From assembly GCA_040905765.1 (NCBI GenBank), contig JBBDQX010000061.1, positions 1 to 48,916 on the forward strand: a DNA stretch of 48,916 bases. Direction: 5' to 3'. This stretch comes from Acetobacterales bacterium (GTDB lineage: Bacteria > Pseudomonadota > Alphaproteobacteria > JBBDQX01). Every line of letters starts with the position of its first letter. Within the stretch, counting starts at the first letter, position 1. Below, piece after piece: positions 1,279 through 32,054 of this stretch. A program made the position numbers and the translations under genes. The notes under the pieces are model-generated. The model saw only the letters and a list, made by a program, of their open reading frames with translations. It was not told the DNA's origin and did not search any database.

Positions 1279-2775
1279 TCAGAAATCGGCGCGCTCGCCG
1301 AAGCGCGGCGGGTCGAACTCCTCCTTCTGAGCGGCGGCCTCTACCTTGTCGAGGGGCACGGTCCACAGCTTCGTGTTCGCGCCCTTCAGGTGCACCTGCA
1401 CCTGCGATTGTGCGCCACGTGCTTTCAGCGCGTTCCACACCTCGCTGGGCTTAACACGCACGCGCTGCTGCTCTAGGTGCTTCTTGAAGTCCTGCAGGCG
1501 GAAGAACACGAGGCCCTTGTCGTAGTCCTTGTACGACTTACCCATCAGCACCTCGTCCAACACCCTCCCCTGCCAGTTGGCGTTCGCGAAGTTGAGAAAC
1601 TGTACCCAGATGATCCCGGACGTCGTCGCGTCCTCTGGCATCGCCTCGACCTCGGCCTCGGCGAGCAGCGGTTCCATGATCTGCTTGAGCTGCTTCTTGG
1701 TGAGCGGCTCCGGCCAGTGTCGCGTCTGCTCGACGATCCGGTTCTGGAGCCGGGTCGGACTCGTCAGGTCCTCGACGGCGTCCAGCCTCACGGGATCTCC
1801 GCGGAAATGCAGGACGAAGGAAATAGGCTCCGTCAGGTGCTTGACCAGCGGGCCGTACTCGTTGCTCCGAACGGTCGGCTCCGCACGGCGCTTCAGCACG
1901 CTCCGGACGACGCCCTCGACCTCTCGGCTCGGCAGCGGCCCGTCGTCGAACTCCTCGTTCAACCGGTGCGCCTCGGCGCGGAGGCGCGCCTCGGAATACT
2001 CCTCCGGCAGACTGATCAACTGCACGAAGAGCGAGTTATTGCGGCCGCCCTCCTCGTACGGCGAGTCGTGAACCGGCGTGGCGCCCAGACGCCGGACCGC
2101 AGCGGCCGGTTCCGGCGCGGCCAGCTCGTTCAGGCGCTCGATTCGGACCTCGAAGGGTTCGGCCTTCCGGTGCAAGAAGCCGGGGAGGCGCATCACACGA
2201 GGCAGATCCTTCACCTTGTGGTCGCCGTCGAAGCGTGCGGCCAACCCACTCTGCACGTCGCGGAAGGCGCCTAGAGGCAGCTCGGCCACGCGCCAGTAGC
2301 AGTGCCAGCGGCCCGGCGACGACTCGACCACGCAGTGAGGCGGCAGCTCGCACGCCAGCACCGGCTCCAGCGGCGCGCCGTCGAGGTCGACGAACACGGC
2401 ACGCACGGCGTCGATGTTCTCGGCACGCCGGCCGCGCAGGTCTGTCCTGTTGATCGTGATGAAAATCCCGGCGCCCTTCTCGCTCAGCTGCGCCAGCTCG
2501 GCTTCGTGCTGCTTGAGCGTCCCGTTCAGCACCTTCACCAGCGCGTCGGCCTTCCGCTCGCGATCTTCGTCGAAGGTCTGGAACGTGAAGGCCTCCGCCT
2601 CCGGGTCCAGCCAGCGCAGGAATCGCTCGGCGTCGGCGTGTACGGCGCCGCGCTCAGTGGGTATAATTTCCGGCGAAGAACGGCTTTCCTCAGCGTTCTC
2701 GACCCTTCGGCCGCCGCGGTCCCCAGCCGCGGCGGTCTCTTTTTCGTCAGCCATCTCCAGCGTCTCCGCCTTCAA
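1279..2775 (-). CDS. RepB-family DNA primase / primase-polymerase with C-terminal extension
   Basis: 498-aa ORF. The segment FTFQTFDE...GAGIFITINRTDLRGRRAENIDAVRAVFVDLDG...VESSPGRWHCYW...RLPGF matches the RepB-type (RSF1010-like) primase catalytic core as I recall it. The start may instead be the second ATG at 2752-2754. Confidence 0.7.
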   Translation of the reverse strand: MKAETLEMADEKETAAAGDRGGRRVENAEESRSSPEIIPTERGAVHADAERFLRWLDPEAEAFTFQTFDEDRERKADALVKVLNGTLKQHEAELAQLSEKGAGIFITINRTDLRGRRAENIDAVRAVFVDLDGAPLEPVLACELPPHCVVESSPGRWHCYWRVAELPLGAFRDVQSGLAARFDGDHKVKDLPRVMRLPGFLHRKAEPFEVRIERLNELAAPEPAAAVRRLGATPVHDSPYEEGGRNNSLFVQLISLPEEYSEARLRAEAHRLNEEFDDGPLPSREVEGVVRSVLKRRAEPTVRSNEYGPLVKHLTEPISFVLHFRGDPVRLDAVEDLTSPTRLQNRIVEQTRHWPEPLTKKQLKQIMEPLLAEAEVEAMPEDATTSGIIWVQFLNFANANWQGRVLDEVLMGKSYKDYDKGLVFFRLQDFKKHLEQQRVRVKPSEVWNALKARGAQSQVQVHLKGANTKLWTVPLDKVEAAAQKEEFDPPRFGERADF

Positions 2776-3256
2776 GGATCAGGCATCCGCGACCGGCGGC
2801 CGCGAGGGAGTCGTTGCGTGTGTACAGCACCGCCAGCGTGCCGCCGGGGAGGTACCAAGACACTGGTACTACCTCCGCGCTCAGCCCGTGCTCCGCCGCG
2901 AAGGCGACGTGCTCCATGAAGTCTGTCTGATAACTGTGGGACAGGATCGCCACGGGGCGGTAAGGGCGCGCCAGCTCGCGGAAGCACTCCGGGTGATCGA
3001 TCTCCGGATAGTGCCGGGAGACGTCGCTCCGGTAGCTGGAGCCCTCGATCAGGTTCCGCAGTCCGAACGGCTTGCGCGTGTAGCGCCAGCCGCGCCGCTC
3101 GGCGAGCTCCGCGCAGGCGTGATCGCGGGCAGCGAAGTACGCGTCTTGTAGTCGCCGCTCGCGCAGCCTTGTCTCTCGCGTCTTCTGCTGGCTGTAGGCC
3201 CACCGCGCCCGATGCAGCTCGATGGACGCGACGACAGCGTCGTCCGCCGCGCTCAT
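2747..3256 (-). CDS. Hypothetical protein (169 aa from MSAADDAVV)
   Basis: ORF 2747..3328. The ATG at 3254-3256 forms an ATGA overlap with the alpA-like stop, which suggests coupling. No recognisable domain. Confidence 0.5.
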   Translation of the reverse strand: MSAADDAVVASIELHRARWAYSQQKTRETRLRERRLQDAYFAARDHACAELAERRGWRYTRKPFGLRNLIEGSSYRSDVSRHYPEIDHPECFRELARPYRPVAILSHSYQTDFMEHVAFAAEHGLSAEVVPVSWYLPGGTLAVLYTRNDSLAAAGRGCLILEGGDAGDG

Positions 3257-3483
3257 CGGTCTGGATCGCCCTTGAGGCGCACTTCGGGCAGCTCGTCCAG
3301 CCAGCGGAGAACGTCGTCGCGTCGCCACATCGCCTTCTGAGCGACGCGCACCGAGCGGGGGAACTTGCCCTCCCGCATCATGGTCCAGATCGTCGGGTAA
3401 CTTAAACTAACGAGGTGACAAACGGTCTTCTTGTCGAGAAGGGCGCGATCCGCCAGCTCCTCGGCGAGGTCAGGAACGATCAT
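3253..3483 (-). CDS. AlpA-family phage transcriptional regulator / excisionase (HTH)
   Basis: 76 aa. LLDKKTVCHLVSLSYPTIWTMMREGKFPRSVRVAQKAMWRRDDVLRWLDE fits the AlpA/Xis MerR-like HTH pattern. Typical position next to an integrase. Confidence 0.75.
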   Translation of the reverse strand: MIVPDLAEELADRALLDKKTVCHLVSLSYPTIWTMMREGKFPRSVRVAQKAMWRRDDVLRWLDELPEVRLKGDPDR

Positions 3484-3664
3484 CGCTATCTTCCTCCGGC
3501 CGACGCCGGCGGAAGACGACCGCCGACGGTCAGCCTGTTAGGGCCAGTCCGTCTCGCACGATGTCGTTCTCCTCGTTATTCGGTGGCACGGGCCGCGAGT
3601 TGGCCCGTACCGTTGATACTACCTAATTACACCCGGTATTAAAACCTTTATTCGGGGGTCGAAG

Positions 3665-3699
3665 AAAAAAGCGCCCCCGCTGCTTTGCAACGAGGGCGC
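3665..3699 (-). terminator. Rho-independent terminator after the 89-aa ORF
   Basis: Minus strand reads GCGCCCTCGTTGC-AAA-GCAGCGGGGGCGC followed by TTTTTT. Confidence 0.7.
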
Positions 3700-3715
3700 C
3701 GGTTCTTCGCCTTGC

Positions 3716-3985
3716 CTACTCGCCCGCCTTCTCGACGGCGGCCGGGATTTCGAGGTCCTCGACTGCCTCGATGTAGTCCTCGAGTTCGTCCTCGAACGTG
3801 TCCTCCACGATCACCATCGCAACGGCGAAGAGGAAGCCGAAGAGGATGTAGCGGTTGGGGTGGGCCTGATCTCGGTCCAGCACCAACTTGAACAGGTCGA
3901 GTGCGACGTCGTCGGCCGACGCCTGCGTACCGTCGGAGCGGTAATCGGCGATGGACACTGCGAGGTGGAAAAGATTGGTAGGCAT
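3716..3985 (-). CDS. Hypothetical acidic protein (89 aa)
   Basis: ORF 3716..4024. The internal ATG at 3983-3985 has a strong SD (AAGGAG, 8 nt upstream). C-terminus is Asp/Glu-rich. It has its own terminator. Confidence 0.55.
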   Translation of the reverse strand: MPTNLFHLAVSIADYRSDGTQASADDVALDLFKLVLDRDQAHPNRYILFGFLFAVAMVIVEDTFEDELEDYIEAVEDLEIPAAVEKAGE

Positions 3986-4152
3986 CGTGAGTGCTCCTTG
4001 ATTTGAGCACTCGGCTGCAGACAACGGGAGCCAGCAGCCGAGCGCAGTTGCGCTTCGGTCTCCGCATGCTGGTTATCCTCGTTATGAACTCGGGCGGGGT
4101 CGGCGCCGCGGGTTGCGCCGCACGCCTTCACGTGGGAAGGCGCCCGAGTAGG

Positions 4153-5382
4153 TCAAGAGCGGATCGCAACAATTTTTTCATCGTCGGCCTTGCCGTTCAC
4201 CAGCGCCTCCACGCGTGCGGCGATGCTGCTCCAGACGGCACGGTTCTCGTCCCGGTACCGGTGGCGGTCGTAGACGCCGGCGATCCCGCCGTCGCGGTGG
4301 TTGAGGAGCCGGTCGATGGCGTCGCGGCCGACGCCGAGGCTGGCGGCCAGCGTGGCGAAGGTCCTGCGAAGATCGTGCGGCCTGACGGGCGGCTCGAACG
4401 ACAGGCTGCGCATGGCGGTGTCCAGCTTCGCAGCCGGCCCGCCGCGCGCGCCGGGGAGGACCCAGCCGTCGCCGCCGTCCTCGACGATCGCCAGCGCCGT
4501 GTCGGACAGCCAGACCTCGTGCGACTGCCCGTTCTTGGTGCCGGGCCAGCCGGTCACAGGGTCCGGCTCCCCGGGCAGCGTCCACCACCGGCCGTCGATG
4601 TGCTCGCGGCGCATGTGCCTGATCTCGCCGGGCCGCTGCCCGGTCAGCAGCACCAGCCGCAGCGCGTCGGCGGCGACCGGGTCCACGTCGTCGAGGCCTT
4701 CCCAGAAGGTCGGCATCTCGGCGGCGGACAGGACGCGCTCGCGGGACTTGCTGCCGAACCGCTCGACGCCGCTGCACGGGTTGGCTGGTAGGACGACGAC
4801 CTCGTTCTTGATCGCCCAGCCGAAGAGTCCCGACAGATGCGCCAGCAGCGCGTCCGCCGCCACCGGCGCCGTCGCGCCGACGGCTGCGTGGAGGCGGCGC
4901 ACCTCGGCGCGCGTGACCTCCGCCGCCGGCAGCGGACGCCACCGGCGCAGGGCGTGGCGTCGGATCGCCGTGTCGGCCTGCCGCCACGACCGGTTCTTCC
5001 GCTTGGCGTACTCCTCGACGTAGCGGTCCAGCAGCTCGCCGAAGGTGTCGGCCTTGCGCGCCGCCAGCTTCTCGGCCTGCGGGTCGTCGCCGGAGGCGAT
5101 CTTCACCCACAGCTCCTTCGCAAGCTGCCGCGCCTCCTTCAGGCCCAGCTTCGTCGCGTCGCCCAGGTGGTACAGCCGAGGCCTGCCGTGGTGGCGGTAC
5201 GGCACCTTGAAGCTGCGCTTGCCGCTCGGCTCGACGACCAGCGTCAGGCCGTAGGCATTACCGGCCGCGTCGTAGATCCGCCGCCGCCGGTCGGCGGCCG
5301 GCGCCCTCCTGACCAGCGCGTCGGTGAGCACGCGCCGCTCGGGCGCAGCGGCTGCGGAGCCGTCTTGTCGGGGTCGGGGCAT
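4153..5382 (-). CDS. Tyrosine site-specific integrase (phage integrase family)
   Basis: C-terminal catalytic region ...GQRPGEIRHMRREHI...HDLRRTFATLAASLGVGRDAIDRLLNHRDGGIAGVYDRHRY carries the R..H-x-x-R..Y pattern. The ATG at 5380-5382 has GGAGGG 8 nt upstream. The ORF-track start is a GTG at 5424. Confidence 0.9.
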   Translation of the reverse strand: MPRPRQDGSAAAAPERRVLTDALVRRAPAADRRRRIYDAAGNAYGLTLVVEPSGKRSFKVPYRHHGRPRLYHLGDATKLGLKEARQLAKELWVKIASGDDPQAEKLAARKADTFGELLDRYVEEYAKRKNRSWRQADTAIRRHALRRWRPLPAAEVTRAEVRRLHAAVGATAPVAADALLAHLSGLFGWAIKNEVVVLPANPCSGVERFGSKSRERVLSAAEMPTFWEGLDDVDPVAADALRLVLLTGQRPGEIRHMRREHIDGRWWTLPGEPDPVTGWPGTKNGQSHEVWLSDTALAIVEDGGDGWVLPGARGGPAAKLDTAMRSLSFEPPVRPHDLRRTFATLAASLGVGRDAIDRLLNHRDGGIAGVYDRHRYRDENRAVWSSIAARVEALVNGKADDEKIVAIRS

Positions 5383-5400
5383 GGTGGGTCCCTCCGCTCG

Positions 5401-5419
5401 GGTTAACGTCTGGTTAACG
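5401..5419. repeat. Two direct GGTTAACG boxes spaced 11 bp, just upstream of int
   Basis: GGTTAACGtctGGTTAACG. A related GGTTAACC sits in the ori-like block at 1196-1203. Confidence 0.4.
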
Positions 5420-5639
5420 CCCACACGCTAATACATCGGAATAGGAATTAACACCCCTTTATGGAAAAAGCGCCGTTTTCTGCGGCTTTCAGGCGTTACC
5501 CTAACAGGTCTTCATGCCCTTGAACGGGGGATAAAATTAATCGTCGGTTAAGGATTTTGCGGCAGAGTCCGTCACGGTCGTTCCCTGATCGAGGGGACTT
5601 TCCCGCCGCGGACGCCGGTTCGCGGTCGCCTCCCTCCAG

Positions 5640-6476: not shown

Positions 6477-8288
6477 TCAATTCCACGGCACGATGAACAA
6501 CGGCACGGGCTGCGAATAGCCCTTCATTTCCCACTTGCCGTGCTCGTTGAACTTGAGGTTGGCGCGACCGGAGCAGAGCTGGCGGACGATATCGGTCACC
6601 AGGATTTCGTCTGATTCGGCCTTGGAGCAGGTACGGGCAGACATCTGCACGGTCGTGCCGAACAGGTCGTCGTCCTCGGATATGGCCTCGCCGGAGTGCA
6701 GGCCAATGCAGATGTGGAATTCCAGTTCCTTGTTCGACTTGTTGTGCTGAGCGGTGGCGCGCTGGATCTCGATAGAACCCTCCACCGCGCCGGAAGCGGT
6801 CATGAACTGGGCCATGATGCCGTCGCCGGTGTGCTTGATCTCCTTGCCGCCGAAGCGCTGCAAGGCCGAGCGGACGATGGTGTTGTGGGCGCGAACGACG
6901 ATCTGTGCCTTCTCGTCGCCAAGCCGCTGGGTCATCGCCGTCGAGCCGGCGAGGTCGGTGAACATCACCGTGATCGGCGCGCTGGTCCGGCTGTCCGACA
7001 CCGGTTTGTTCCACTTGTCCATCGCGTTGGACAGCAGCCTGGCGGCGGTGGGGTCCTTGTCCGCCTGCTTCGACATTGCCGTGCGGCCAGCGTTGAACAT
7101 GTCGAGATACTTCTGGTCGAGCAGGTAGTCCTCGTACTTGTCGATGAAGGTGCGGGCAAGGTGCGTTTTGGTGCCGTTGCTCTCAAGGCACGACTGCAGC
7201 ATCTGGCGCGCGCCATCCGCGTCAAGGTTGTTGTCGTCGGCGACGACGCCGCAGGCCCCGGCGAGGAAGAGGTTGAAGCCGAACTTGTTGTAGGCGTCGA
7301 GACTCGGCCGCTTCTTGATCACCGGCTTCAGCGATTCGCCGATGAAGTCCATCACCGAAGTCCGATGCTTTGCGACTTCGGCGGGTACCTCGCTGTTCTT
7401 CTTCTTTTTCTTCTTCTTGCCCTTGGCCTCCTCGACGGCGCGCTTCTCCGCCTCTTCCCGTGCCTTCTTCTCGGCCTCCTCGCGATCCTCCTTCGACTTC
7501 ATCTGGGCCACCGCGTCGGCGGCCGATGTCTCGACGGGGGGCAGCGCCTCCGGACGCCCTGCTGCCGGCTTGGGGCCGCTGGCACGCCGGCGCCGGGCGC
7601 GGCGGCGCGGCTGACGGCGCGGCCGCGCCCCGCCACCCATGCCGGCGAAGGCGAGCTGGTTGATGGGGAGGTATTTCTTCATCAGCAGCATCGCGCTGGC
7701 GATGAAGCCGACGACGAACGCGCCGAAGGTCAGGTTGGCGCCAAGGCCGCGGGAGATATCGAGCGAACTGAGGACGAAGCTGGTCCCGAGCGACAGCCCC
7801 GTGGCGCCGAGCACGCTGAGCAGAAGCACGATGAGAATGCGGATGATGACGCCGACGAAGCCGACCGAGATGGTCTGGCCGCCAGCCGGTGCAGTCGGAC
7901 CACGCTGCGCACTGGCGGAGGCATTCGCCGGCTTTTCGGGAAGTGCTTCCCGTCCGCTTCCGGCAGGACGTTCGCCGCCACCGCGCACGCCGCCCCCGCC
8001 GCCACCCCCTGCCGGGGCGGGGGGGCGGTTCTTCATGCGCTCGGCTTTCTTGGCGTCCTCCTCCTTCTTGAGCTCGGAGCTCAGAAAGATGACGGAGTCT
8101 TCGCTGAGGTTGGTGTCGGGGTAGTAGACCTCGCGAATCACCTTGACGCTGCCGGCATTCGGTTGCGCGTCGATCTGCCTGGCTTCCTCCAGGGCCTGGT
8201 CTCGCTGGGCCCCGTCGAAACGGGCATGCAGCATCCAGCGACCGCTGCTCTGGACGTAGACCTCGTAGGTGACCTGCCTTCGACTCAT
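6477..8288 (-). CDS. Membrane-anchored class III adenylate/guanylate cyclase with a novel N-terminal domain and low-complexity linkers
   Basis: 603 aa. C-terminal ITVMFTDLAGSTAMTQRLGDEKA...HTGDGIMAQF...HSGEAI...GTTVQMSAR is a CYTH-less class III cyclase domain. Two hydrophobic segments lie mid-protein, along with poly-Gly, Arg-rich and K7 tracts. Confidence 0.85.
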   Translation of the reverse strand: MSRRQVTYEVYVQSSGRWMLHARFDGAQRDQALEEARQIDAQPNAGSVKVIREVYYPDTNLSEDSVIFLSSELKKEEDAKKAERMKNRPPAPAGGGGGGGVRGGGERPAGSGREALPEKPANASASAQRGPTAPAGGQTISVGFVGVIIRILIVLLLSVLGATGLSLGTSFVLSSLDISRGLGANLTFGAFVVGFIASAMLLMKKYLPINQLAFAGMGGGARPRRQPRRRARRRRASGPKPAAGRPEALPPVETSAADAVAQMKSKEDREEAEKKAREEAEKRAVEEAKGKKKKKKKNSEVPAEVAKHRTSVMDFIGESLKPVIKKRPSLDAYNKFGFNLFLAGACGVVADDNNLDADGARQMLQSCLESNGTKTHLARTFIDKYEDYLLDQKYLDMFNAGRTAMSKQADKDPTAARLLSNAMDKWNKPVSDSRTSAPITVMFTDLAGSTAMTQRLGDEKAQIVVRAHNTIVRSALQRFGGKEIKHTGDGIMAQFMTASGAVEGSIEIQRATAQHNKSNKELEFHICIGLHSGEAISEDDDLFGTTVQMSARTCSKAESDEILVTDIVRQLCSGRANLKFNEHGKWEMKGYSQPVPLFIVPWN

Positions 8289-8499
8289 GCCGTCAGACTC
8301 AAGCGCCCCCGACGCCGCTGCCCGATCCGCACGTCACTCGCCGGAAACGGCCACACGCGCCGCACCGCCGGGCGCCACGCGCCGCCAGCAACAACTGTTC
8401 ATGTCCGGCTGCCGTCCTGTCCGCCCCGTCCAGTCCGCCCAAGCCGGACCGGGTGCCCCCGGACCGGCCGATTATAGGAAAAATCCGGAACAAATCGGC

Positions 8500-8549
8500 A
8501 AAAAAATGCCGACGTCAGGCAAGCAGGCCGCCGGCAGCGTCCCCGGCGG
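8500..8549 (-). terminator. Candidate rpmE terminator (two hairpins plus a T7 tract on the minus strand)
   Basis: Minus strand CCGCCGGGGACGCTGCCGGCGG ... TGCCTGACGTCGGCA TTTTTTT. Confidence 0.45.
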
Positions 8550-8561
8550 TCTGGTGAGGGA

Positions 8562-8786
8562 TCAGCCTTTCAGGCCGAATCCCTTGAAGCGCTTGTTGAA
8601 CTTCGAGAGCTGGCCGCCGCCGTCCATCAGGCGGTGCACGCCGGTCCAGGCGGGGTGGGTCTTCGGGTCGATGTCGAGCCGAAGCTCCTCGCCCTCCTTG
8701 CCCCAGGTCGAGCGGGTCTTGAACGAGGTCCCGTCAGTCTGGATGACGGTGATCTCATGATAGTCGGGATGGATGTCCTTCTTCAT
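8562..8786 (-). CDS. rpmE: 50S ribosomal protein L31
   Basis: [32 protein letters not shown]...FNKRF from the ATG at 8784-8786. The upstream part of ORF 8562..9035 is not L31. Confidence 0.95.
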
Positions 8787-8908
8787 CGCCCGTGTCCTGC
8801 TGCCGGTCGCGACTCTGCCGCCGCGAGAGGGCGCCTTATACCGGAGCGGCGCCGGAGGCGCAACCGGCTGATGGCGTTGCCTGCGCGGAGCCCCCCGTCT
8901 AGTTTCCG

Positions 8909-10735
8909 GTGATGGCAGAGGGGGCAGGCAGCGCGACCGGAAGCGGTCGCGGGGAAGGCGAGGCGGCGAGGCTGGGCGGCCTGCGGCGGCTGTGGCCCTT
9001 CGTCCGTCCCTACGGCCGGACGGTCGCCCTGGCAAGCCTCTGCCTGACCGCTGCCGCCGGGGCGGTCCTGGTGATCGGTGTCGGGCTGAGGCGCCTGGTC
9101 GACAGGGGTTTCGCCGGGGGCGATGCGGCTATGCTCGACCGCTCGCTGGTGATGCTGCTGGCGGTGGTCGCGATCCTCGCGCTGGCGACCTACGGGCGGT
9201 TCTATTTCGTCTCCTGGCTCGGCGAACGGGTGGTCGCGGACCTGCGCCGCGCCGCCTTCGCGCATCTGCTTCGACTCGACATCGCCTTCTTCGAGAGCAC
9301 GCGATCCGGCGACCTGGTATCCCGGCTGACGACAGACGCGGCATTGCTGCAGCAGGTCATCGGCTCCTCTGCGTCGATGGCGCTACGCAACGCGCTGCTC
9401 TTCGTCGGCGGCGTGGGGATGCTGGTGGTGACCAGCCCGCGGCTCACCGGTCTCGTCGCAGTGGTGATTCCGCTGGTGATCGCGCCGATCGTGCTGATCG
9501 GGCGGCGCGTCCGGGTGTTGTCCCGCGCCAGCCAGGAAGCCCTCGGCGCCCTCGGTGCACAGGCGGAGGAGCGGATCGCGGCGATCCGCACCGTCCGCGC
9601 CTTCGGGCAGGAATCGGCCGACGGGGCCCGCTTCGACACCCATGCAGAGGCCGCCTTCGCGGTCGCGGTACGACGGATCCGTGCCCGGGCGGCCCTGACG
9701 GGGCTGGTGATCGTGATGGTGTTCGGCGCCGTCAGCTTCATCCTCTGGTCGGGCGGTCACGACGTGCTGGCCGGCCGGATCAGCGCCGGCGAACTGTCGG
9801 CCTTCGTTTTCTACGCCGTGGTGACCGCAGGGGCGGTCGGCGCGATCAGCGAGGTCAGCGGCGACCTGCAGCGCGCCGCCGGTGCGGCCGACCGGATCGT
9901 CGATATGCTCGAGACGCGCTCCGCCATGCCGGCGCCGGCGCATCCCCTGCCGTTGCCCATGCCACCGCTGGGCGAGGTGACGTTCGACGAGGTGACCTTC
10001 ACCTATCCCGCGCGGTCGGACCACGCAGCCCTGCACGGTGTGTCGTTCCGCGTCGGACACGGCGAGAAGGTGGCGCTGGTCGGCCCTTCGGGGGCGGGCA
10101 AGACGACCGTGCTGCAGCTCCTGCTGCGCTTCTACGATCCTGACCGCGGCACCGTCACGGTCGACGGCGTGGCGGTCGACCGTGCCAATCCCGACGCGTT
10201 GCGCGCCCGGATGGCCCTGGTGCCGCAGGATCCGGTGATCTTCGCTGCCAGCGCCTGGGACAACATCCGCTACGGACGGCCGGAAGCGACCGACGCCGAG
10301 GTGCGCCAGGCTGCCGATCGGGCCGCCGCGAGCGATTTCCTCGAGCGGCTGCCGGAAGGCTTCGAGAGCTATCTCGGCGAACGCGGGGTGCGGCTGTCCG
10401 GCGGGCAGCGCCAGCGCATCGCCATCGCCCGGGCACTGCTGCGCAGTCCGGCGATCCTGCTGCTCGACGAAGCGACGAGCGCCCTCGACTCCGAGAGCGA
10501 GCGGCTGATCCAGCAGGGACTGGAGAAACTGACGAGCGGGCGCACCAGCATCGTCATCGCGCATCGGCTATCGACGGTGCTCAATGCCGACCGGATCGTG
10601 GTGATGGACGAAGGCAGGGTGGTCGCTTCCGGTACCCATGAGGAACTTCTCGGGCGCAGTCCGCTCTACGCCCGGCTTGCCGAACTGCAGTTCGGCTCGG
10701 CAGGGTCGGAGGGCGTCAGGGCGTCGTCAGCTTGA
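8909..10735 (+). CDS. ABC transporter, fused permease/ATPase (ABCB/MsbA-like exporter)
   Basis: 608 aa. Six-TM N-terminal half, Walker [10 protein letters not shown], signature [14 protein letters not shown], Walker [13 protein letters not shown]. The start is GTG 8909 or ATG 8912. Confidence 0.9.
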
Positions 10736-12032
10736 ACTCGATGCGCCGGTTGCGGCGCAGCGCGATCTCGTCGTTGCGGTCGTCGATCGGGTGATATTCG
10801 CCGAAGCCGGCGGCGAGCAGGCGGTCCGCGGGCACCCCGCGCTCGATCAGCGCCTTGACGACATCGACTGAGCGCCCGGTGGACAGTTCCCAGTTCGACG
10901 GGAAACGCAGAGTGCTGATAGGTCGCTTGTCGGTATGCCCGTCGACGCGGAGGATCCAATCCACATCGGCGGGAATCTCCCGGGAGATCTCCAGCAGGGT
11001 ATCGGCGAGCTGGTTGATCTGTTCGCGACCCCCCGGCTGCAGCACCGCCTCGCCGGTCTCGAACAGTACCTCGGACTGGAACACGAAGCGGTCGCCGACG
11101 ATGCGGATGCCGGGCCGGTTGCCGAGCACCTCGCGCAGCCGGCCGAAGAACTCCGAGCGATAGCGCGCGAGCTGTTGCACGCGGGTGGCGAGCGCGGCGT
11201 TCAGCCGCTGGCCCAGATTGGCGATCTGGATGTCCTTCTGCTCGACTTCCTTCTCGGCGGTCTCCAGCGCCGCATTGAGCTGGGCGATCTGCTGGCGCAG
11301 CGCGGCGACCTGGTCGTTCAGCATCGCGATGCGGGCGCGGGCGGTCTCGGAGACGCTGCGCTCCTCCTGCAGCAGCTTCTCGAGACCCTCGCGCGCATCG
11401 GCGCTGTCATCGAGCTGGCTCGCCAGCTTGCCGACCTCCTGCTCGAGATCGTCGCGCAGCGCGCGGAGCGCCACCACCTCTTCGGCCAGCCGGTTACGTT
11501 CCTGGTCGAGCTGTTCGCGCTCCGACTCGAGGTCGGCGAGGCGGGCGGACATCTGCTGACGTTGTTCGAGCAGGGTATTGCGTTCGTCCTGCAACGACTG
11601 CCGTTCCGTCAGCAGGCTGGAGCGCTGGTCGCCGAGCGACTCCTGCTCGGAGCGCAGCCGGGCGAGTTCTGCCGAGATGCGATCCCGATCGGAGCGCACC
11701 TCCGACAGCGTCTCCTGCAGTGTCGAGAAGCGCGACTGCAACTGGTCTCGTGTCTCCGTGGTCTCTTGGAGCTGGGCGGACAGCTGGGTGACGTTGAGCC
11801 GCAGGTCGGCCGAGGTTTCGCGCTCCAGCGCCAGCATTTCGGCGAGTTCGTCGATCCGGTTGTTGAGCCGGTCGAGCGCCGCGTCCCGGCCGAGCAGCGC
11901 CTCGTTGAGGAAGACCTGCGCCATCACGAAGACGAGCAGCAGGAAGATCAGCACCATCAACAGCGTGGCGAGGGCGTCGACGAAGCCCGGCCAGATGTTG
12001 TTGTCGCGTCGGGAGCGGCTGGCTATGGACAT
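10716..12032 (-). CDS. MotB/TolR-like membrane protein with ~250-aa coiled-coil stalk and C-terminal OmpA-like peptidoglycan-binding domain
   Basis: 438 aa. N-terminal NIWPGFVDALATLLMVLIFLLLVF is a plug/TM with a conserved Asp. A long Q/E/R/L-rich heptad-like region follows. C-terminal ...RVDGHTDKRPI...NWELSTGRSVDVVKALIERG...NRRIEFKL. Confidence 0.8.
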   Translation of the reverse strand: MSIASRSRRDNNIWPGFVDALATLLMVLIFLLLVFVMAQVFLNEALLGRDAALDRLNNRIDELAEMLALERETSADLRLNVTQLSAQLQETTETRDQLQSRFSTLQETLSEVRSDRDRISAELARLRSEQESLGDQRSSLLTERQSLQDERNTLLEQRQQMSARLADLESEREQLDQERNRLAEEVVALRALRDDLEQEVGKLASQLDDSADAREGLEKLLQEERSVSETARARIAMLNDQVAALRQQIAQLNAALETAEKEVEQKDIQIANLGQRLNAALATRVQQLARYRSEFFGRLREVLGNRPGIRIVGDRFVFQSEVLFETGEAVLQPGGREQINQLADTLLEISREIPADVDWILRVDGHTDKRPISTLRFPSNWELSTGRSVDVVKALIERGVPADRLLAAGFGEYHPIDDRNDEIALRRNRRIEFKLTTP

Positions 12033-12062
12033 CCTGCTGTTTCGGCCCGCGAGGGCCGCCCG

Positions 12063-13202
12063 TCAGCGCCCGGCGGAATCCGCAGCGGCAGCAATCGTGC
12101 GGGACAATACCTTGATCTCGTTTCGAATTTCCCGCACCACCTGTTCGCGTCCCGCCTGGGCGTCCTCGGTGATGCGGGCAGCGTAGAACTCGATGTTCCG
12201 GATATGGTTGCGTGTCGCCTCGTCCATACCCCCCGAGCTGCCTTCCTCCAATAGCCGGCTGAGGAGCGATTTCAGCTCGATCTGGCTCTCGCCCAACTTG
12301 ACCAGCAGGTTCTGCTCGGTGCGCATCTGGTCGGTCAGGGTACTCAGCCGTTCCGTCAGGTTGACCACGCTGGCGTTGGCGGTGATGCGGCTCTCCTCGC
12401 CGCGTTCGAGGATGCGCTGCAGCGACTCCATGTTCTCGGCCGTCTGCTCCAGCAGTGCCTGCACGTAGGCAGGCACTGAATGGTCGCCATCGCCCCCGAT
12501 GCTGCCCGAAGACAGTCGGGTCAAGCTGGAAAGCCATTCCTCAAGATCGTTGTAGAAGCGGTTCTGCGCCTGCCCGGCCTGCAGGTCGAGGAAGCCGAGC
12601 GCCAACGAGCCCGCCAGGCCGAACAGCGAGGACGAGAAGGCGGTGCCCATGCCGGACAGTGGCGCGCGGAAATTCTCCTTCAGTTCGGAGAAGACGGCGG
12701 TCGCTTCCGCGCCGGCGCCGACGGACAGGCCGGCAATGACGTCGCTGACGGAACTGACCGTCTCCAGCAGGCCCCAGAAGGTGCCGAGCAGGCCAAGGAA
12801 GATCAGCAGGCCGATCAGGTAGCGCGAGATCTCACGCGACTCGTCGAGACGCGACTGGATGCCGTCGAGCAGCGACCGCATCGACATTGTGGACAGGCTG
12901 AGGCGGGTGCCGCGCTCGCCGAGCATGGTCGCCATCGCGCCCAGCAGCTGCGGCGGCCGCTGGACCGACAGGCCGGGCTCGCCGCGGCGGTAGGTCTCGA
13001 TCCAGGTCACCTCGGGGGCCAAGCGTAGCACCTGGCGGAAATTGTAGATGATGCCGAGCAGCAGCACGCCGACGATCAGGCCGTTGAGCGCCGGGTTCGC
13101 CATGAAGGCGCGCCACAGGCCTTCGAACAGCAGCCCCCCCACGATCGTGACGGCGATGAGGAACATCACCATCCGGATCAGGAAAGGGCGGGGGCTCGTC
13201 AT
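12063..13202 (-). CDS. MotA/TolQ/ExbB proton-channel family protein with ~150-aa C-terminal cytoplasmic helical extension
   Basis: 379 aa with four hydrophobic segments. Family motifs LGLLGTFWGLLETV and GMGTAFSSSLFGLAGSLALGF parallel TolQ at 28374 (GLFGTVWGIM, AEALFATALGLVAAIP). Confidence 0.8.
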   Translation of the reverse strand: MTSPRPFLIRMVMFLIAVTIVGGLLFEGLWRAFMANPALNGLIVGVLLLGIIYNFRQVLRLAPEVTWIETYRRGEPGLSVQRPPQLLGAMATMLGERGTRLSLSTMSMRSLLDGIQSRLDESREISRYLIGLLIFLGLLGTFWGLLETVSSVSDVIAGLSVGAGAEATAVFSELKENFRAPLSGMGTAFSSSLFGLAGSLALGFLDLQAGQAQNRFYNDLEEWLSSLTRLSSGSIGGDGDHSVPAYVQALLEQTAENMESLQRILERGEESRITANASVVNLTERLSTLTDQMRTEQNLLVKLGESQIELKSLLSRLLEEGSSGGMDEATRNHIRNIEFYAARITEDAQAGREQVVREIRNEIKVLSRTIAAAADSAGR

Positions 13203-13243
13203 ATCAGGTTATGCCGGCTCGACCGTCGTCCACGAGGGCGCGG

Positions 13244-14350
13244 TCAACGCTTCACGACGTTGACGTCGACGCGGTCTGACGGCCCGCCGTCGGTGTTGGT
13301 GCCGAGTGCCCGCACGTCGATGCGCGTGCTGCGCACGCCCTGGTCGATCAGGAACGAGCGCACAGCCAAGGCTCGCGCCAACGAGGTACGGCGGGCACGG
13401 CTGGCGGTTTCGGCGGAGCCGGAGGCATAGGCCATGAGCTGCAGTCGCGCGCTGCTGTCCTGCTCGAGCCGCGAGGTGAGCGCCTTGAGATCGGTTTCCG
13501 CGGAAGTCGGCAGCTTCGACTCGTTCGCTGCGAAGCGGATCCGCAAGGCCTGTCCGCTGCTCAACGCCGCGGCACCCTGCATATGCGCCGTCTGCATCGG
13601 CGCTGGATCTGCCTGCCTGCCGGTCGCCGCGGGAGGCTGGGCCGCCGGTTCACGCTGCGTCTCCGGGCGCGGCGGAGCGGCCGGCGGTTCGGGTACGCGG
13701 GTCGACGGGGTGGGGGGGGGCATATCGACTGCGGGCGGCTGCGCCGCCGGCGCGCGCTGCGTCGATTGCCGCGGTGCCGGATTGACGGAAGCGACCTGCG
13801 GTGGCGGTGCGCTCTCCGGCGTGGGTGCGATAGGGGCTGGACGCGCAGTCGCGGGCCTGGGCGGTGGTGCAGCCAGCCGGGCAGCCGCGGCGGCAGGCGC
13901 CGGTTCGGCGAGGCGCGGTGGCGGGGCCGGTTCGCTCCGCCGCGGCGGCGTCAGCATGGCGGAGCGTGGCGGTGTCAGTCCCGAGAATGAGCCGCTACCG
14001 TTCGGTGGCGTGAGTGTGATGCTTTCGCGCGCGGCGCCGTCGCCGACCAGCAGGCGGGACTGCGGCGGCGATGGCGGCGGCGGCCGCAGGAGTTCGATAC
14101 CTTTGGCACGCGCGTCGAGGACGTCGAGGTTCACTTCGACGCTGGTGGAGGTGCCGCCGATATAAACGGTATCCTGCGCCCGCACGGCGCCGGAAGTTCC
14201 GGCGACCGCGAGCGTTGCGACCAGCAACAGAGCCCCCCGCGCGCGGCTGGTCCCCGCGACAGCCCCGAGACGGCCGTCCGGTGTGAAGGTCTCCGCCGAG
14301 ACACCCATTTTCGGTTTCGTCTTGCCCCGCTTCATCGACGAAAAACGCAT
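13244..14350 (-). CDS. Secreted OmpA-family protein with a long Pro/Ala-rich linker
   Basis: 368 aa. Signal-like LLLVATLAVAGTSGAVRAQ, ~200 aa Pro-rich, C-terminal LQLMAYASGS...RRTSLARALAVRSFLIDQGVRSTRIDVRALG (OmpA-like). Confidence 0.75.
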   Translation of the reverse strand: MRFSSMKRGKTKPKMGVSAETFTPDGRLGAVAGTSRARGALLLVATLAVAGTSGAVRAQDTVYIGGTSTSVEVNLDVLDARAKGIELLRPPPPSPPQSRLLVGDGAARESITLTPPNGSGSFSGLTPPRSAMLTPPRRSEPAPPPRLAEPAPAAAAARLAAPPPRPATARPAPIAPTPESAPPPQVASVNPAPRQSTQRAPAAQPPAVDMPPPTPSTRVPEPPAAPPRPETQREPAAQPPAATGRQADPAPMQTAHMQGAAALSSGQALRIRFAANESKLPTSAETDLKALTSRLEQDSSARLQLMAYASGSAETASRARRTSLARALAVRSFLIDQGVRSTRIDVRALGTNTDGGPSDRVDVNVVKR

Positions 14351-14417
14351 ATGCGACAGAACAATAGCCCATGGTATGCGCCGGTCACAACCGGTTTGGG
14401 TCGGCGCGCGGCGGGCT

Positions 14418-15203
14418 TCAGGGTGTGTGCGCCGCTTTCAGCAGCTTCTGCGCCGGCTCGTGCAGATCGGTGTTGGTGGCGAGGACGTCGCCGTTCTCCG
14501 GCACATGGCCGTGCTGCCGGGGCCGGCCGCCGATCTCGGAGACGAACCCGCCGGCCTCCTGGACCAGCAATACCCCTGCCGCGATGTCCCAGGGCTTGAG
14601 CCCGTATTCCCAGAACGCTTCGTAGCGTCCCGCCGCGACATAGGCGAGGTCGAGGGCGGCGGAGCCTTGCCGCCGGACCCCGGCGGTGGCGGGCATCACC
14701 GCCGCCAGCGTACGCAGGAAGCGGTCCTGGTCCGGCATGTCGGCGAAGGGGATGCCGGTGGCGAACACTGCCTCGCCCAGCTTCTTGCGCCCCGAGACGC
14801 GCAGCCGGTTGCGGTTCAGATAGGCGCCGACGCCCTTCTCGGCCCAGAAGGTCTCGTCGCGCAGCGGGTCGTAGACGACGCCGGCGACGATGCGGCCCTC
14901 GCTCTCATGCGCGATGGAGATGCAGAAGTGCGGGATGCCATGCAGGAAATTGGTGGTGCCGTCGAGCGGGTCCACGATCCAGCGGTTGGCGTCGTCGCTG
15001 CCCTTCGTCTCGCCCTGCTCCTCCATCAGCAGGCCGAAGGCGGGCCGTGCGCGCGAAAGCTCCGCACGCAGCGTCCGTTCCGCGCGCAGGTCCGCCGCGG
15101 AGACGAAGTCGGCCGGTCCCTTGACCGAGACCTGAAGCTGTTCGACCTCGCCGAAGTCGCGGATCAGTCCGCGGGCGGCTTTCTGCGCCGCGCCCGCCAT
15201 CAC
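14418..15203 (-). CDS. suhB: Inositol monophosphatase family protein (SuhB). The true start is probably upstream (see finding)
   Basis: WIVDPLDGTTNFLHG, GVVYDP and WDIAAG motifs. The ORF-track start is a GTG that cuts into the conserved N-terminal helix. Confidence 0.9.
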   Translation of the reverse strand: MMAGAAQKAARGLIRDFGEVEQLQVSVKGPADFVSAADLRAERTLRAELSRARPAFGLLMEEQGETKGSDDANRWIVDPLDGTTNFLHGIPHFCISIAHESEGRIVAGVVYDPLRDETFWAEKGVGAYLNRNRLRVSGRKKLGEAVFATGIPFADMPDQDRFLRTLAAVMPATAGVRRQGSAALDLAYVAAGRYEAFWEYGLKPWDIAAGVLLVQEAGGFVSEIGGRPRQHGHVPENGDVLATNTDLHEPAQKLLKAAHTP

Positions 15204-15249
15204 CGTGATGATGGCGGAGCGGCGGGAGATGATGGCTCCAGACAGGGTG

Positions 15250-15819
15250 CTAGTCCTTCGCGCGTTCGACGTATGATGCGTCGTAGGTGTTGACCACGAC
15301 GCGGGTGCCCGACCCGATATGCGGGGGCACCATGATGCGCACGCCGTTCTCCAGCTTGGCCGGCTTGTAGGAAGACGACGCGGTCTGGCCTTTCACCACC
15401 GCGTCGGCCTCGACGATCTCGAGCACCACATGCTCGGGCAGTTCGACCTCGATCGGCTTGCCCTCGTAGCTTTCGATGGTGACCACCATTCCCTCCTGCA
15501 GGAACGGCACGCGGTCCTCGCCGATCACCTCGCTCGACACCGCCACCTGGTCGAACGTCTCCATGTCCATGAAGGTGTGCATGTCGCCCTCGGAGAAAAG
15601 GTACTGGTGCTCCTTCTGCTCCAGGCGGATGCGCTCGACGGTTTCGGAGGAACGGAAGCGTTCGTTCAGCTTCGTGCCGTCCATCAGGTCCTTCAGTTCG
15701 ACCTGCATGTAGGCGCCGCCCTTGCCGGGCTGGGTGTGCTGGGTGCGCACGGCGCGCCACAGTCGCCCCTTGTGTTCGATGACGTTGCCGGGACGAATCT
15801 CGTTGCCGTTGATCTTCAT
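15250..15819 (-). CDS. efp: Elongation factor P
   Basis: [24 protein letters not shown]...[15 protein letters not shown]... from the ATG at 15817-15819. Confidence 0.95.
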
Positions 15820-15934
15820 GGCGCGGGACGGCTCCTTGGCCGCGGGCTTGGCGAAAGGGGGCTGCGACGACCCGGCTGGCCGGGAGGCGCGGAAATTATC
15901 AGCTTGCCGGGGGAGTGGCAACGCGCGCGGAAGG

Positions 15935-16579
15935 CTAGGGAAGGGTCCTCGCGATCGCCTCGTTGAGCGCCTTTACGCCGCCGCCTGGCCCGTCGGGATG
16001 GCTCCACACCGCGGAGACGACGGCGAGGAAGTCCGCCCCTGCCGCGACCAGCGATCCGCAGTTGTCCGCCGTGATGCCGCCGATGGCGACGCAGGGAACG
16101 GTCGCCATGCCGCTCCAGTGCACCAGCAGGTCCGATGTCGGGAAGTTCTTGCGGCCGGGTTTGGTCGGACTGGGGAAGAACGCGCCGAAGGCGACGTAGT
16201 CGGCACCGGCTTCGCCGGCCGCCATGGCGCGGTCCACCGAATCGCCGCAGGTCACGCCGACGATGGCATCGTCGCCCATGATGCGGCGCGCTTCGGGATA
16301 GGGCGTATCCTCCTCGCCGATGTGCACGCCGTCGCAGTCGCACTCGGCGGCGATCGTCGGGTCGTCATTGAGGATGAAGGCGACGTCGCGTGACTGCGCC
16401 ACCGGCAACAGCGCATCGCAGGCTCGCCGCACCGCGTCGGCATCGACGTTCTTCAGGCGAAGCTGCACGCAGGCGACGTCGCCACCGTCGAGCGCCCTGG
16501 CGAGCTCGTCGGCGAAAGCCGACGGCTCCAGCCGCTCGGGCGTGATCAGATAGACCCGGCAACCGGGTGCGTCGGCCAT
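15935..16579 (-). CDS. thiE: Thiamine-phosphate synthase
   Basis: 214 aa. VYLITP...VQLRLK...GVHIG..., AIGGIT and FLAVVSAVW are typical ThiE segments. Confidence 0.88.
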
Positions 16580-21805: not shown

Positions 21806-21985
21806 TAGCCTCAGACGGGGCTGTCCGGTGCGACAGGCTTTATCGTCCCTGGGGCTGAGACGTTCTCCAGGGAGCTGTCCCTGCCGAGATCGTGGTCTCG
21901 GTACAACGGCGCCCACCTGCACAAGCAGGCCACAGAGGACATGCATTGCCACCGGCCGCGATGGCTCCGTCTGCCAGCCCTGTTG
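21806..21985 (+). ncRNA. ssrS: 6S RNA (SsrS), ends approximate
   Basis: Conserved zapA-ssrS-5-FCL(ygfA) synteny. A ~200-nt non-coding gap. The termini pair as a long rod: CAGACGG..CCGGUG (21812-21830) with CACCGG..CCGUCUG (21949-21973). Further partial complementarity surrounds an unpaired centre. Confidence 0.65.
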
Positions 21986-26839: not shown

Positions 26840-27906
26840 TTTCGGCCCCGGACAGGCTGGTGGCGCCGGGCGCGGCCGGCGACGAGGGCGGGGATCCGGC
26901 CCTGCGTCCCCAGCAGCTGTCCGATTTCATCGGTCAGGCCAGGCTGCGCGAGAACCTGAAAGTATTCATCTCGGCGGCCTCCGGGCGCGGGGAACCGCTC
27001 GACCATGTGCTGTTCCACGGTCCGCCGGGCCTCGGCAAGACGACGCTGGCGCAGATCGTCGCACGCGAACTTGGCGTGGGCTTTCGGGCCACCTCCGGGC
27101 CGGTGGTGGCTCGTGCCGGCGATCTTGCAGCGATCCTCACCAACCTGCAGCCGCGTGACGTGCTGTTCATCGACGAGATCCACCGCCTCAATCCTGCCGT
27201 GGAAGAGGTGTTGTATCCCGCCATGGAGGATTTCCAGCTCGATCTCATCATCGGCGAGGGCCCGGCCGCTCGCTCGGTGCGCATCGATCTGCCGCGCTTC
27301 ACACTGGTCGGCGCGACGACGCGCTCGGGGCTGCTGACGACGCCGCTGCGCGAGCGTTTCGGCATTCCGCTCAGGCTGTCCTTCTACGAAGTGCCGGAAC
27401 TGACCGAGATTGTCGGCCGCGGCGCGCGCGCGCTGGGCTTCGTGGTGACGCCGGAGGGGGCGGGGGAAATCGCCCGCAGGTCGCGCGGCACGCCGCGGGT
27501 GGCCGTCCGCCTGCTGCGCCGGGTGCGCGATTTCGCGGCGGTCGACGGCGCGGCGGACCAGCCGGTGGATGCGGGCCGCGCCGATGCCGCGCTGAACCGG
27601 CTGGAGGTCGACGGCCTCGGCCTCGATGCGATGGACAGGCGCTATCTCAACTGCATCGCCGAAATGTACAGCGGCGGCCCGGTCGGAGTGGAGACGCTGG
27701 CGGCGGCACTGTCGGAGCAGCGCGACACGATAGAGGACGTGATCGAGCCGTTCCTGATCCAGCAGGGGCTGATCCAGCGTACCCTGAGGGGTCGCATGAT
27801 GGCGGATTTCGGCTATCGGCACCTGGGTCTGACGGTTCCGCGGCGTTCGGCCGACCAGCTCGACCTGCTCGAGCGCGCTGCCGCGGAGGAGGCTGCCGAT
27901 GCCTGA
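26836..27906 (+). CDS. ruvB: Holliday junction DNA helicase RuvB
   Basis: [12 protein letters not shown]...[16 protein letters not shown]...LFIDEIHRL...[18 protein letters not shown]. Confidence 0.97.
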
Positions 27907-28366: not shown

Positions 28367-28373
28367 CAGGCCC

Positions 28374-29102: not shown

Positions 29103-29104
29103 CC

Positions 29105-29587: not shown

Positions 29588-29590
29588 CCG

Positions 29591-31905: not shown

Positions 31906-32054
31906 TTTATCGCCACTATAGTGCCGCCTTCGAGGTGAAGTTCCGCTTTATTTCACGGTCCTTAACACCTCTTTGCATATGCCACTGAAAGTATTCGTTA
32001 GGGTGCTTGCAGGGTTGTGTCCTGTGACTATCGTCCCATAAGGAAAGGCGGACT

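Follow-up and report, generated by a model that had tools for sequence, protein, structure and literature searches.

A three-gene locus in an alphaproteobacterial genome

The subject of this report is a three-gene locus on contig JBBDQX010000061.1 of an Acetobacterales bacterium, of which a stretch of 48,916 nucleotides (hereafter, the window) was analysed. Three open reading frames (ORFs), P1 (13244-14350), A (12063-13202) and B (10716-12032), follow one another on the minus strand, with gaps of 41 nt between P1 and A and 30 nt between A and B, reproducing the coordinates and spacing reported for these co-directional genes in an earlier note on this DNA. P1 encodes a 368-aa secreted periplasmic protein, a lineage-specific accessory. 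A encodes a 379-aa subunit of the MotA/ExbB/TolQ/ZorA superfamily with four transmembrane (TM) segments, proposed to form a pentameric ring, and B encodes a 438-aa MotB-like subunit, a member of NCBIfam PRK09039, proposed to form a dimeric axle. Coordinates given below for parts of these genes are all on the minus strand. On balance, A and B probably constitute a housekeeping, non-flagellar representative of the “5:2” class of ion-driven motors (MotAB, ExbBD, TolQR and ZorAB). Each of the 5:2 motors described to date has a known output: it turns flagella, energises TonB or TolA, powers gliding and type IX secretion, or serves in Zorya defence.

Architecture and class membership of subunit A

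The layout of A was read from its sequence and comprises four TM segments in an N-in/C-in arrangement, an Arg-rich loop of ~70 aa between TM2 and TM3, and a helical tail. The membrane core (residues 1-212; 12567-13202) holds TM1-TM4, with the TM2-TM3 loop at residues 57-125, the motif LGLLGTFWG at 136-144 and GMGTAFSS at 184-191. LGLLGTFWG and GMGTAFSSSLFGLAGS lie inside the four hydrophobic segments, which are followed by ~165 aa of helical tail; motifs, segments and tail are thus all present as the earlier note had described them for a 4-TM protein with an extra cytoplasmic extension. In the AlphaFold2 (AF2) model, the tail (residues 213-379; 12066-12566) forms helices at 245-321 and 328-378.

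Across orders, the invariant columns of A include E64, W67, R72, D113, R118, E121, R123, G137-G144, T141, G184, M185, T187 and A188. The core and the TM2-TM3 loop are conserved at this distance, while many tail residues are invariant only among Rhodospirillales-like homologues. The loop is charged and strongly conserved, and the monomer model has a predicted local distance difference test score (pLDDT) of 48-65 in this region. Both the channel motifs and this cytoplasmic loop are under strong purifying selection. The tail is usually 100-200 aa long across the family and rarely reaches 393 aa, the window protein having 156 aa by this measure. It contains a unit of the type xLxHLRxLDxxLxRL (consensus roughly xLDExxRxHLRxLDxxLxRL), present once in the window as DEATRNHIRNIE and in 2 to ~7 copies in some homologues (P0283, P0241, P0291, P0330), whose tails extend to 393 aa.

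Profile searches point to the ZorA family. The five ZorA models match all 51 A homologues, with a best E-value of 3.6e-17, and the PADLOC ZorA1 model matches the window protein at E=8.7e-14 over positions 105-295 of the 683 in the hidden Markov model. MotA_ExbB is the only recurrent Pfam family, matching 40 of the 51 homologues, always below threshold, and the NCBIfam models for MotA, TolQ and ExbB gave no match to A at E<0.1. When the A family was aligned with the TolQ of the window using hhalign, IFLGLLGTFWGLL paired with TolQ PFVGLFGTVWGIM, over 21 columns only and at 49% probability. A Foldseek search of the Protein Data Bank (PDB) with the AF2 model returned A-subunits of solved 5:2 motors for all of the top 50 matches, in the order Shewanella ZorA, ExbB, TolQ, E. 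coli ZorA and a MotA chimera; representative entries are ZorA 8vvn at the top, ExbB 5sv1, TolQ 9ddn and MotA 9lu9, with MotA ranking 46th. As judged from its sequence, A is a remote MotA/ExbB/TolQ/ZorA-superfamily protein whose nearest family is ZorA. The MotA/MotB-family membership put forward for A in the earlier note is borne out by the ZorA models and the fold matches, but the sub-threshold Pfam scores and the lack of NCBIfam matches make this a remote relationship.

Subunit B couples an Asp-bearing helix to a wall-binding domain

B begins with a TM helix (residues 14-40; 11913-11993) that carries the motif WPGFVDAL within WPGFVDALATLLMVLIF, the codon of Asp19 lying at 11976-11978. This N-terminal pattern resembles the Asp-bearing TM helix of MotB. 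Residues W14, P15, G16, F17, V18 and D19 are invariant in 49 aligned B homologues, and WPGFVD recurs in essentially all related loci and in Sinorhizobium meliloti. The helix leads into a periplasmic heptad coiled coil, the stalk (residues 41-303; 11124-11912), of ~262 residues or ~39 nm if straight. The protein ends in an OmpA-like domain of the MotB peptidoglycan-binding type (residues 309-436; 10725-11108) with the motifs GHTD, SNWELS and RRNRRIE.

The C-terminal domain matches PF00691 at 9e-13, and the PADLOC ZorB3 model matches B at E=8.5e-23, mostly through this same domain. Its closest PDB relatives by sequence are MotS (3.5e-17), MotB (1.4e-14) and PomB (3.3e-12), and the periplasmic domains of these three proteins are also its Foldseek matches (E~1e-10; template modelling (TM) scores of 0.65-0.76). 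The AF2 model of B (pLDDT 78) contains a helix at residues 15-206, a 4-residue break at 207-210, a second helix at 211-303 and then the α/β domain, making the TM helix continuous with the stalk up to residue 206. The whole protein scores 444.3 bits with NF006543 (PRK09039 “peptidoglycan-binding protein”; cut-off 305) and 378.6 bits with NF006545 (cut-off 372). B is a bona fide member of PRK09039 (NF006542-NF006546), and the S. meliloti orthologue carries its product name; PRK09039 is a naming model only, which states neither a function nor a link to an A subunit. The stalk gives generic matches to crescentin-type rods.

The stalk of B is quantised in heptads

The hydrophobic periodicity of the stalk (residues 45-303) is exactly 3.50 residues, with a power of 3.57 compared to 0.18±0.17 in shuffled sequences; none of 1000 shuffles reached the observed value. 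The heptad frame is constant from residue ~45 to ~260, and there is no proline in 259 residues. With this periodicity, the TM Asp and the PF00691 match, all three elements that the earlier note had read in B are confirmed, and the profile and fold checks that it had proposed agree in placing the C-terminal domain with MotS, MotB and PomB.

Across B homologues, the distance from the TM Asp to GHTD ranges from 248 to 1161 residues. It is congruent to 3 modulo 7 in 68 of 73 related loci (93%) and in 102 of 116 further homologues. Counting each distinct value once, 22 of 33 fall in this phase (P≈1e-11 compared to uniform phases), and no other modulus from 3 to 11 shows an enrichment. The B proteins of S. 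meliloti and of two Hyphomicrobiaceae-type genomes have a distance of 248, which is likewise congruent to 3. Because the distance keeps this phase, stalk length varies by whole heptads, as is predicted if an uninterrupted canonical coiled coil joins the TM helix to the wall-binding domain. The single-heptad steps and the constant register also argue for a continuous coiled coil over a hairpin.

Among B homologues the coiled coil spans ~164 to >1000 residues. If straight, the stalk is estimated at ~24 nm in the shortest proteins, ~33 nm in the commonest and ~39 nm in the window, one genome reaching ~160 nm. A typical periplasm is no wider than this, in line with the earlier suggestion that the stalk would be long enough to span it. 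Because stalk length matches or surpasses that width and also varies between homologues, it cannot serve as a fixed ruler, and the stalk is probably not always perpendicular to the membrane. The extreme case, from a complete-genome metagenome-assembled genome (MAG; locus L059, ~7150-10967), is a 1254-aa B protein with 1161 residues between Asp and GHTD, whose stalk would be ~160 nm long if straight, far longer than the width of any periplasm.

P1 is a secreted accessory protein

P1 opens with a Sec-type signal peptide (residues 1-58; 14177-14350) that ends in AVRA/Q, the slash marking the cleavage site. The annotated start gives a 58-aa presequence, and the true start is probably internal, for example at Met15. 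In an alignment of 55 orthologues, residues 59-102 (14045-14176) contain two conserved linear motifs, VEVNLDVLD (consensus VxVDLSVL/ID) and LLxPP..PxSRLLV (or, more loosely, LLxP..PxSRLxV). A variable Pro/Ala-rich spacer follows (residues 103-271; 13538-14044), and the protein ends in a conserved but degenerate OmpA-like domain (residues 272-368; 13247-13537), in which GHTD is replaced by AYAS/G and NRRxE by (N/D)RVD. Proline makes up 14% of P1 and 8-22% of the spacer in its orthologues, where both the length and the sequence of the spacer vary. The C-terminus scores 39.2 bits with PF00691 (cut-off 27.2), and the signal peptide, the spacer and the OmpA-like C-terminus proposed for P1 in the earlier note are all present.

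The canonical Asp and Arg of OmpA-like domains contact the diaminopimelate of the stem peptide (e.g., structure 3td5). Both are kept in the B and Pal proteins of the window, while P1 orthologues retain the Arg and have a conserved AYAG/S at the position of the canonical Asp (GHTD). With GHTD replaced in this way, the diaminopimelate-contacting Asp is missing in P1. All orthologues have a charged n-region, ~12-25 uncharged hydrophobic residues and an AxA/Q site, and neither a conserved lipobox Cys nor a long membrane anchor was found among them. Because the signal peptides are cleavable and there is no anchor, P1 is a secreted accessory and not an anchored transducer of the TolA/TonB type. It is lineage-specific and lies outside the conserved A-B core.

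Distribution, synteny and inheritance

The A family is large: at least 8000 close relatives are present in the databases, and in a set of 1.84 billion 50%-identity representatives A matches 2867 clusters at E≤1e-3 and 612 at E≤1e-30. Synteny was sampled in 80 species-level genomes, mostly Rhodospirillales-like MAGs, and counts are given over assessable loci. B is adjacent to A and co-directional in 75 of 75 loci, with a median gap of ~25 nt. P1 lies directly upstream of A in 63 of 66 Rhodospirillales-like loci, suhB lies upstream on the same strand in 58 of 60 loci, and efp is found in 53 of 56. P1 is absent from two Hyphomicrobiaceae-type genomes (L085, L086) and from S. meliloti, all of which retain A-B. 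The Hyphomicrobiaceae-type order is suhB-A (345-346 aa)-B (342 aa), and that of S. meliloti is thiE-sel1-suhB-A-B-ABC (ATP-binding cassette) exporter (convergent)-rpmE, the same as in the window except for the added sel1 gene and the missing P1. The pair occurs in at least three orders of Alphaproteobacteria, and family members are also named from Acetobacter, Hyphomicrobiaceae MAGs and Sphingomonadales MAGs. Of the three-gene synteny that the earlier note had proposed to look for across Alphaproteobacteria, the A-B part therefore stands (75/75, and the same order in Sinorhizobium), but P1 is missing from the Sinorhizobium and Hyphomicrobiaceae-type loci. The suhB gene is directly upstream of A-B in every order examined (L085, L086, L087 and the window), an association older than P1.

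The immediate flanks of A-B are suhB, efp, thiE, an ABC exporter gene and rpmE, with zero PADLOC matches to Zor effectors, and no linked effector gene was found in >80 loci. Searches for flagellar, TonB, gliding and Zorya-effector genes were empty both beside P1-A-B and in the rest of the window, in agreement with the earlier observation that known output genes are absent next to the locus. The A-B family has no phage matches, and its sole “plasmid” matches are five Sinorhizobium/Shinella replicons of 3.5-4.6 Mb. The conserved order and the absence of phage or true plasmid matches indicate vertical, housekeeping inheritance, not residence in a defence island.

Two individual loci deserve comment. 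The S. meliloti locus (L087, CP090106.1) is on a 3.72-Mb replicon labelled “plasmid pSymB” that carries rpmE, purE/purK, thiE and suhB, and is in all likelihood the main chromosome under a mistaken label. In a 4.56-Mb genome (L083), an insertion sequence element with a DDE_Tnp_1 transposase sits between A and B at 7158-7985, both genes being intact.

Earlier work on Komagataeibacter homologues

Members of this family appear to have been studied before under another name. In Komagataeibacter hansenii, the only MotA and MotB homologues are encoded by adjacent genes for proteins of 348 and 321 aa (Jacek et al., 2019; PMC6570709), in a genus that according to the authors lacks flagella and has no other motility homologues (PMC6570709). 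The K. hansenii MotA is 63% identical over 98% coverage to WP_086640501 of Acetobacter tropicalis (Table 1 of PMC6570709). This Acetobacter protein is P0401 in our set; it shares 44% identity with A along its entire length (E=2e-91), and its cluster representative matches A at E=1e-86. Because WP_086640501 resembles both K. hansenii MotA and A, the K. hansenii pair belongs to the A-B family, although the link is indirect.

Overexpression of either K. hansenii gene gave elongated cells, a tripled spreading of soft-agar colonies and a looser cellulose network, and green fluorescent protein fusions were polar, or bipolar in longer cells (PMC6570709). Disruptants of motA, motB and motAB were obtained, and are thus viable, with denser cellulose according to a review. 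These data suggest action at the cell poles and an effect on how long the cells grow and how their envelope behaves. In those studies the pair was taken for flagellar-type motility proteins (PMC6570709, PMC7347698), and the description by Jacek et al. (2018-2019), whose proteins are shorter, is without the stalk, the ZorA affinity or the housekeeping synteny. The database label “flagellar motor protein MotA” given to A has, in this way, already misled experimental interpretation. The earlier note had called the pair an orphan with an unexplained output; orthologues have already been handled as motA and motB in K. hansenii.

Our literature search turned up no publication in which the family is treated as a separate non-flagellar motor, its stalk is mentioned or a connection to ZorAB is drawn, and searches aimed at PRK09039 and at ZorAB-like systems gave nothing relevant to A-B. 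A recent phylogeny of MotAB describes non-flagellar B subunits as lacking OmpA homology and excludes ZorAB (mBio, 2025); given these two features, it does not cover the A-B family. Other leads proved unrelated, including Sinorhizobium Rgs/Tol-Pal, R. rubrum PapS, alphaproteobacterial signature proteins and two Zorya papers. In Phaeobacter inhibens, an orphan “motA2” outside the flagellar cluster is >12-fold up in ΔctrA and ΔcckA (PMC12363192); this gene could not be assigned to the A family and may equally be of an ExbB type.

A probable housekeeping member of the 5:2 motor class

The features that mark the 5:2 superfamily are found together in A-B: channel-helix motifs in A, a TM Asp in B, and adjacent, co-directional genes. 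We favour the reading introduced above, that the pair is a non-flagellar housekeeping motor of this class. Several observations weigh against it. The Pfam MotA_ExbB score of A is 18.2 bits, under the cut-off of 22.9, and when the PDB was searched by sequence profile, starting from A itself or from either of two family alignments, generic helical proteins came back and no solved motor chain. The AF2 monomer model of A is of moderate confidence (pLDDT 66), and its Foldseek scores are weak, with E-values from ~2.5e-3 and TM scores of 0.3-0.57. For the tail of A, through which an output might pass, good conservation is confined to Rhodospirillales-like lineages and is lost between orders, and no partner or output gene is linked to A-B in the >80 loci. 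Stalks that vary between 24 and ~160 nm, beyond what is needed to reach the wall, are awkward for a simple perpendicular axle. In Komagataeibacter, most of the phenotypes were seen on overexpression and may reflect an indirect effect. Finally, assembly as A5B2 and ion conduction would follow from the features of the class, the structure predictions of A and B being AF2 monomers.

Among known systems, ZorAB is the closest. It is the nearest profile family of A and provides the top fold match, and both systems combine an A-type subunit that has a helical C-terminal cytoplasmic tail with a B-type subunit that has an Asp-bearing TM helix and an OmpA-like domain. The variable length of the ZorA tail is also paralleled by the repeatable tail unit of A. 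The differences are considerable, however. The A-B pair is found without zorC, zorD, zorE, zorF or zorG, in housekeeping synteny and seemingly vertically inherited, whereas Zorya is patchy and located in defence islands. The A tail is 156 aa in the window compared to ZorA profiles of 683-1063 positions, and B has a long periplasmic coiled coil that is absent from ZorB. Although the ZorA and ZorB profiles match, A-B thus lacks the effectors, the defence context and the long tail of Zorya.

The main alternative to the motor reading is a Zorya-type sensor of envelope state that has no defence role, in which B would sense the distance or tension between membrane and peptidoglycan and gate ion flow, and the A tail would relay a signal, not mechanical work, to a housekeeping effector. 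The affinity of A to ZorA in sequence and fold speaks for such a sensor, as do the helical units that extend the tail to 393 aa in some homologues and recall the ZorA tail, and the published Zorya model in which ZorAB is gated by peptidoglycan contact. We nonetheless consider it unlikely: the effector that it calls for is not linked in any of the >80 loci, the tail is short here and diverges between orders, and with a stalk of at least 24 nm the wall-binding domain should reach the peptidoglycan constantly and not only upon perturbation.

A second alternative is that A and B no longer conduct ions and serve as a static tether or scaffold, a periplasmic coiled coil that links the inner membrane to the wall. 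Stalks as long (up to ~160 nm) and as variable as these suit a scaffold or leash better than an axle, and the generic similarity of the stalk to crescentin-type rods fits as well. Against this, the WPGFVD motif with its Asp and the GLLGT and GMGTA channel motifs are invariant from Rhodospirillales-like genomes to Sinorhizobium, a pattern that one would expect only with selection acting on the ion pathway, and a purely structural role is accordingly improbable. A long dimeric periplasmic stalk that continues the TM helix of the axle subunit is not without parallel, being present in GldLM/PorLM. The GldM stalk, from Bacteroidota, differs in that it is built of globular domains, lacks a peptidoglycan-binding domain and drives an outer-membrane track. 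A-B showed no match to GldLM/PorLM in either sequence or fold.

The similarity to flagellar stators lies mainly in B. Like MotAB, PomAB and MotPS, the pair has a B subunit with the TM motif [FY]-x-D-x-[LM] and a MotB-type peptidoglycan-binding domain, and an A subunit with four TM segments in the N-in/C-in topology. That the genes encode a genuine flagellar stator paralogue, as implied by the automatic name “flagellar motor protein MotA”, is very improbable all the same. In favour of this name, sources label A homologues MotA and B homologues MotB, and overexpression raised colony spreading in K. hansenii (PMC6570709). Compared to the reference class of flagellar stators (the FIT clade of PMC12505986), however, A does not match the MotA equivalog model and has a short TM2-TM3 loop, its Pfam match being sub-threshold, and ZorA, ExbB and TolQ all outrank MotA in its fold search. 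Where stators have a plug helix and a short linker, B has an unbroken coiled coil of ~164 to >1000 residues. The genes sit beside suhB and never in a flagellar cluster, and the pair is present in Komagataeibacter, which has neither flagella nor other motility homologues according to the authors (PMC6570709).

TolQR and ExbBD belong to the same motor superfamily, share the GLLGT(V/F)WG motif with A and are likewise located in the envelope; overexpression of tolQ or tolR also elongates E. coli cells (cited in PMC6570709). They differ from A-B in the periplasmic domain of the B subunit, which here is OmpA-like and not TolR/ExbD-like, and in the membrane-anchored transducer, which A-B lacks. The complete Tol-Pal cluster of the organism is found elsewhere in the window, where ybgC-tolQ-tolR-tolA-tolB-pal-cpoB occupy 27899-33869; six of the seven genes exceed their NCBIfam equivalog cut-offs (TolQ 288.8, TolR 137.8, TolB 466.7 and Pal 141.1 bits), while TolA falls under its own. 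The genuine tol-pal cluster that the earlier note had located is therefore real, and A-B is distinct from it, as that note had also held. A second Tol/Ton-like energiser with P1 as its Pro-rich, periplasm-spanning transducer, an idea prompted by the gene order P1-A-B, which recalls tonB-exbB-exbD, and by the long spacer and C-terminal globular domain of P1, can hardly be maintained: P1 has a cleavable AxA/Q site in every orthologue and no anchor, and so cannot sit in the motor as TolA and TonB do, it is missing from the Sinorhizobium and Hyphomicrobiaceae-type genomes that keep A-B, and neither the domain type of B nor the lack of a tolQ or exbB match in A is compatible with it.

A possible mechanism

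If A-B is a housekeeping motor of the 5:2 class, the Asp19-bearing TM helices of two B chains would be enclosed by a ring of A subunits, of which there would be five by analogy with the class. Each B helix would run unbroken into a parallel heptad coiled coil, ~24 nm long in the shortest homologues and ~39 nm here, and the MotB-type OmpA-like domain at its end would anchor B to the peptidoglycan. Proton flow at the A/B interface would then turn or strain the A ring against the wall-anchored B axle. Work or a signal would leave on the cytoplasmic side through the TM2-TM3 loop and the helical C-terminal tail of A, and its receiver may be a cytoplasmic partner encoded away from the locus. In Rhodospirillales-like lineages, P1 would be an addition on the periplasmic side, contributing its two docking-type motifs, its Pro-rich spacer and its degenerate OmpA-like domain.

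A more specific and decidedly speculative proposal, which goes well beyond the assignment to the motor class and which we think has only a minor chance of being right, is that A-B and ZorAB are sister lineages, with A-B the housekeeping one that is inherited vertically. The pair would be a proton-driven rotary unit whose long, wall-anchored and register-locked coiled-coil axle acts as a torsion or tension element; the motor could sense or adjust the mechanical coupling of inner membrane and sacculus at the poles, and report to the cytoplasm through the loop and tail of A, with Zorya as the defence offshoot.

Other features of the window

Upstream of P1 lies a gene for a suhB-type inositol monophosphatase (14418-15203, minus strand; PF00459, 9.7e-63), given here for context. 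At the other end of the locus, the 3′ ends of B and of the convergent ABC exporter gene (8909-10735) overlap by 20 nt at 10716-10735, and no terminator-like site was found at this overlap on either strand. Scans of 10400-16100 for promoters and terminators yielded no signal above the chance level. Otherwise the window has a housekeeping character, encoding ribosomal protein L31, the ABC exporter, SuhB, EF-P, ThiE, aldolase, GAPDH and transketolase, together with 6S RNA, RuvCB, FtsH, FolP, GlmM, SerCA and PurA. The 6S RNA (SsrS) gene is at 21815-21971 on the plus strand (Rfam RF00013, 59.5 bits compared to a gathering score of 46.4). The window yielded no tRNA gene.

A 603-aa protein (6477-8288, minus strand) has a C-terminal class III adenylate/guanylate cyclase domain (PF00211, 4e-15) and an N-terminal half in which a stretch of poly-Gly, a hydrophobic segment and a coiled poly-Lys region are found. 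More than 30 of the 80 related loci encode it 2-5 kb downstream of B, and its PADLOC PycC matches look like generic cyclase homology. At the left edge of the window (1279-5424, minus strand), next to hsp20, a phage-type integrase gene (4153-5424) and a gene for a RepB-primase/PriCT protein (1279-2775) look like a small integrated mobile element. Towards the right edge, a 674-aa ORF (46279-48873, plus strand) has weak kinase-like matches only (LanL and MAD6 models, ~1e-8 to 1e-10), and the 187-aa ORF that follows it matches no family.

Implications for the family

Relative to earlier work, what is new here is the heptad-quantised stalk, the suhB synteny that reaches to Sinorhizobium, P1 as a lineage-specific accessory without the canonical Asp, and the recognition that orthologues had already been manipulated as motA and motB in K. 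hansenii. The axle of this family is unusual, with the TM helix of B passing straight into a coiled coil of 24-160 nm whose length changes only by whole heptads. The pair occurs in tractable species, S. meliloti and Komagataeibacter among them. Its function would add a new use of the 5:2 motor class and could reveal the origin of the Zorya membrane core. If the proposed sister relationship to ZorAB is true, Zorya would be a defence-specialised offshoot of an envelope machine.

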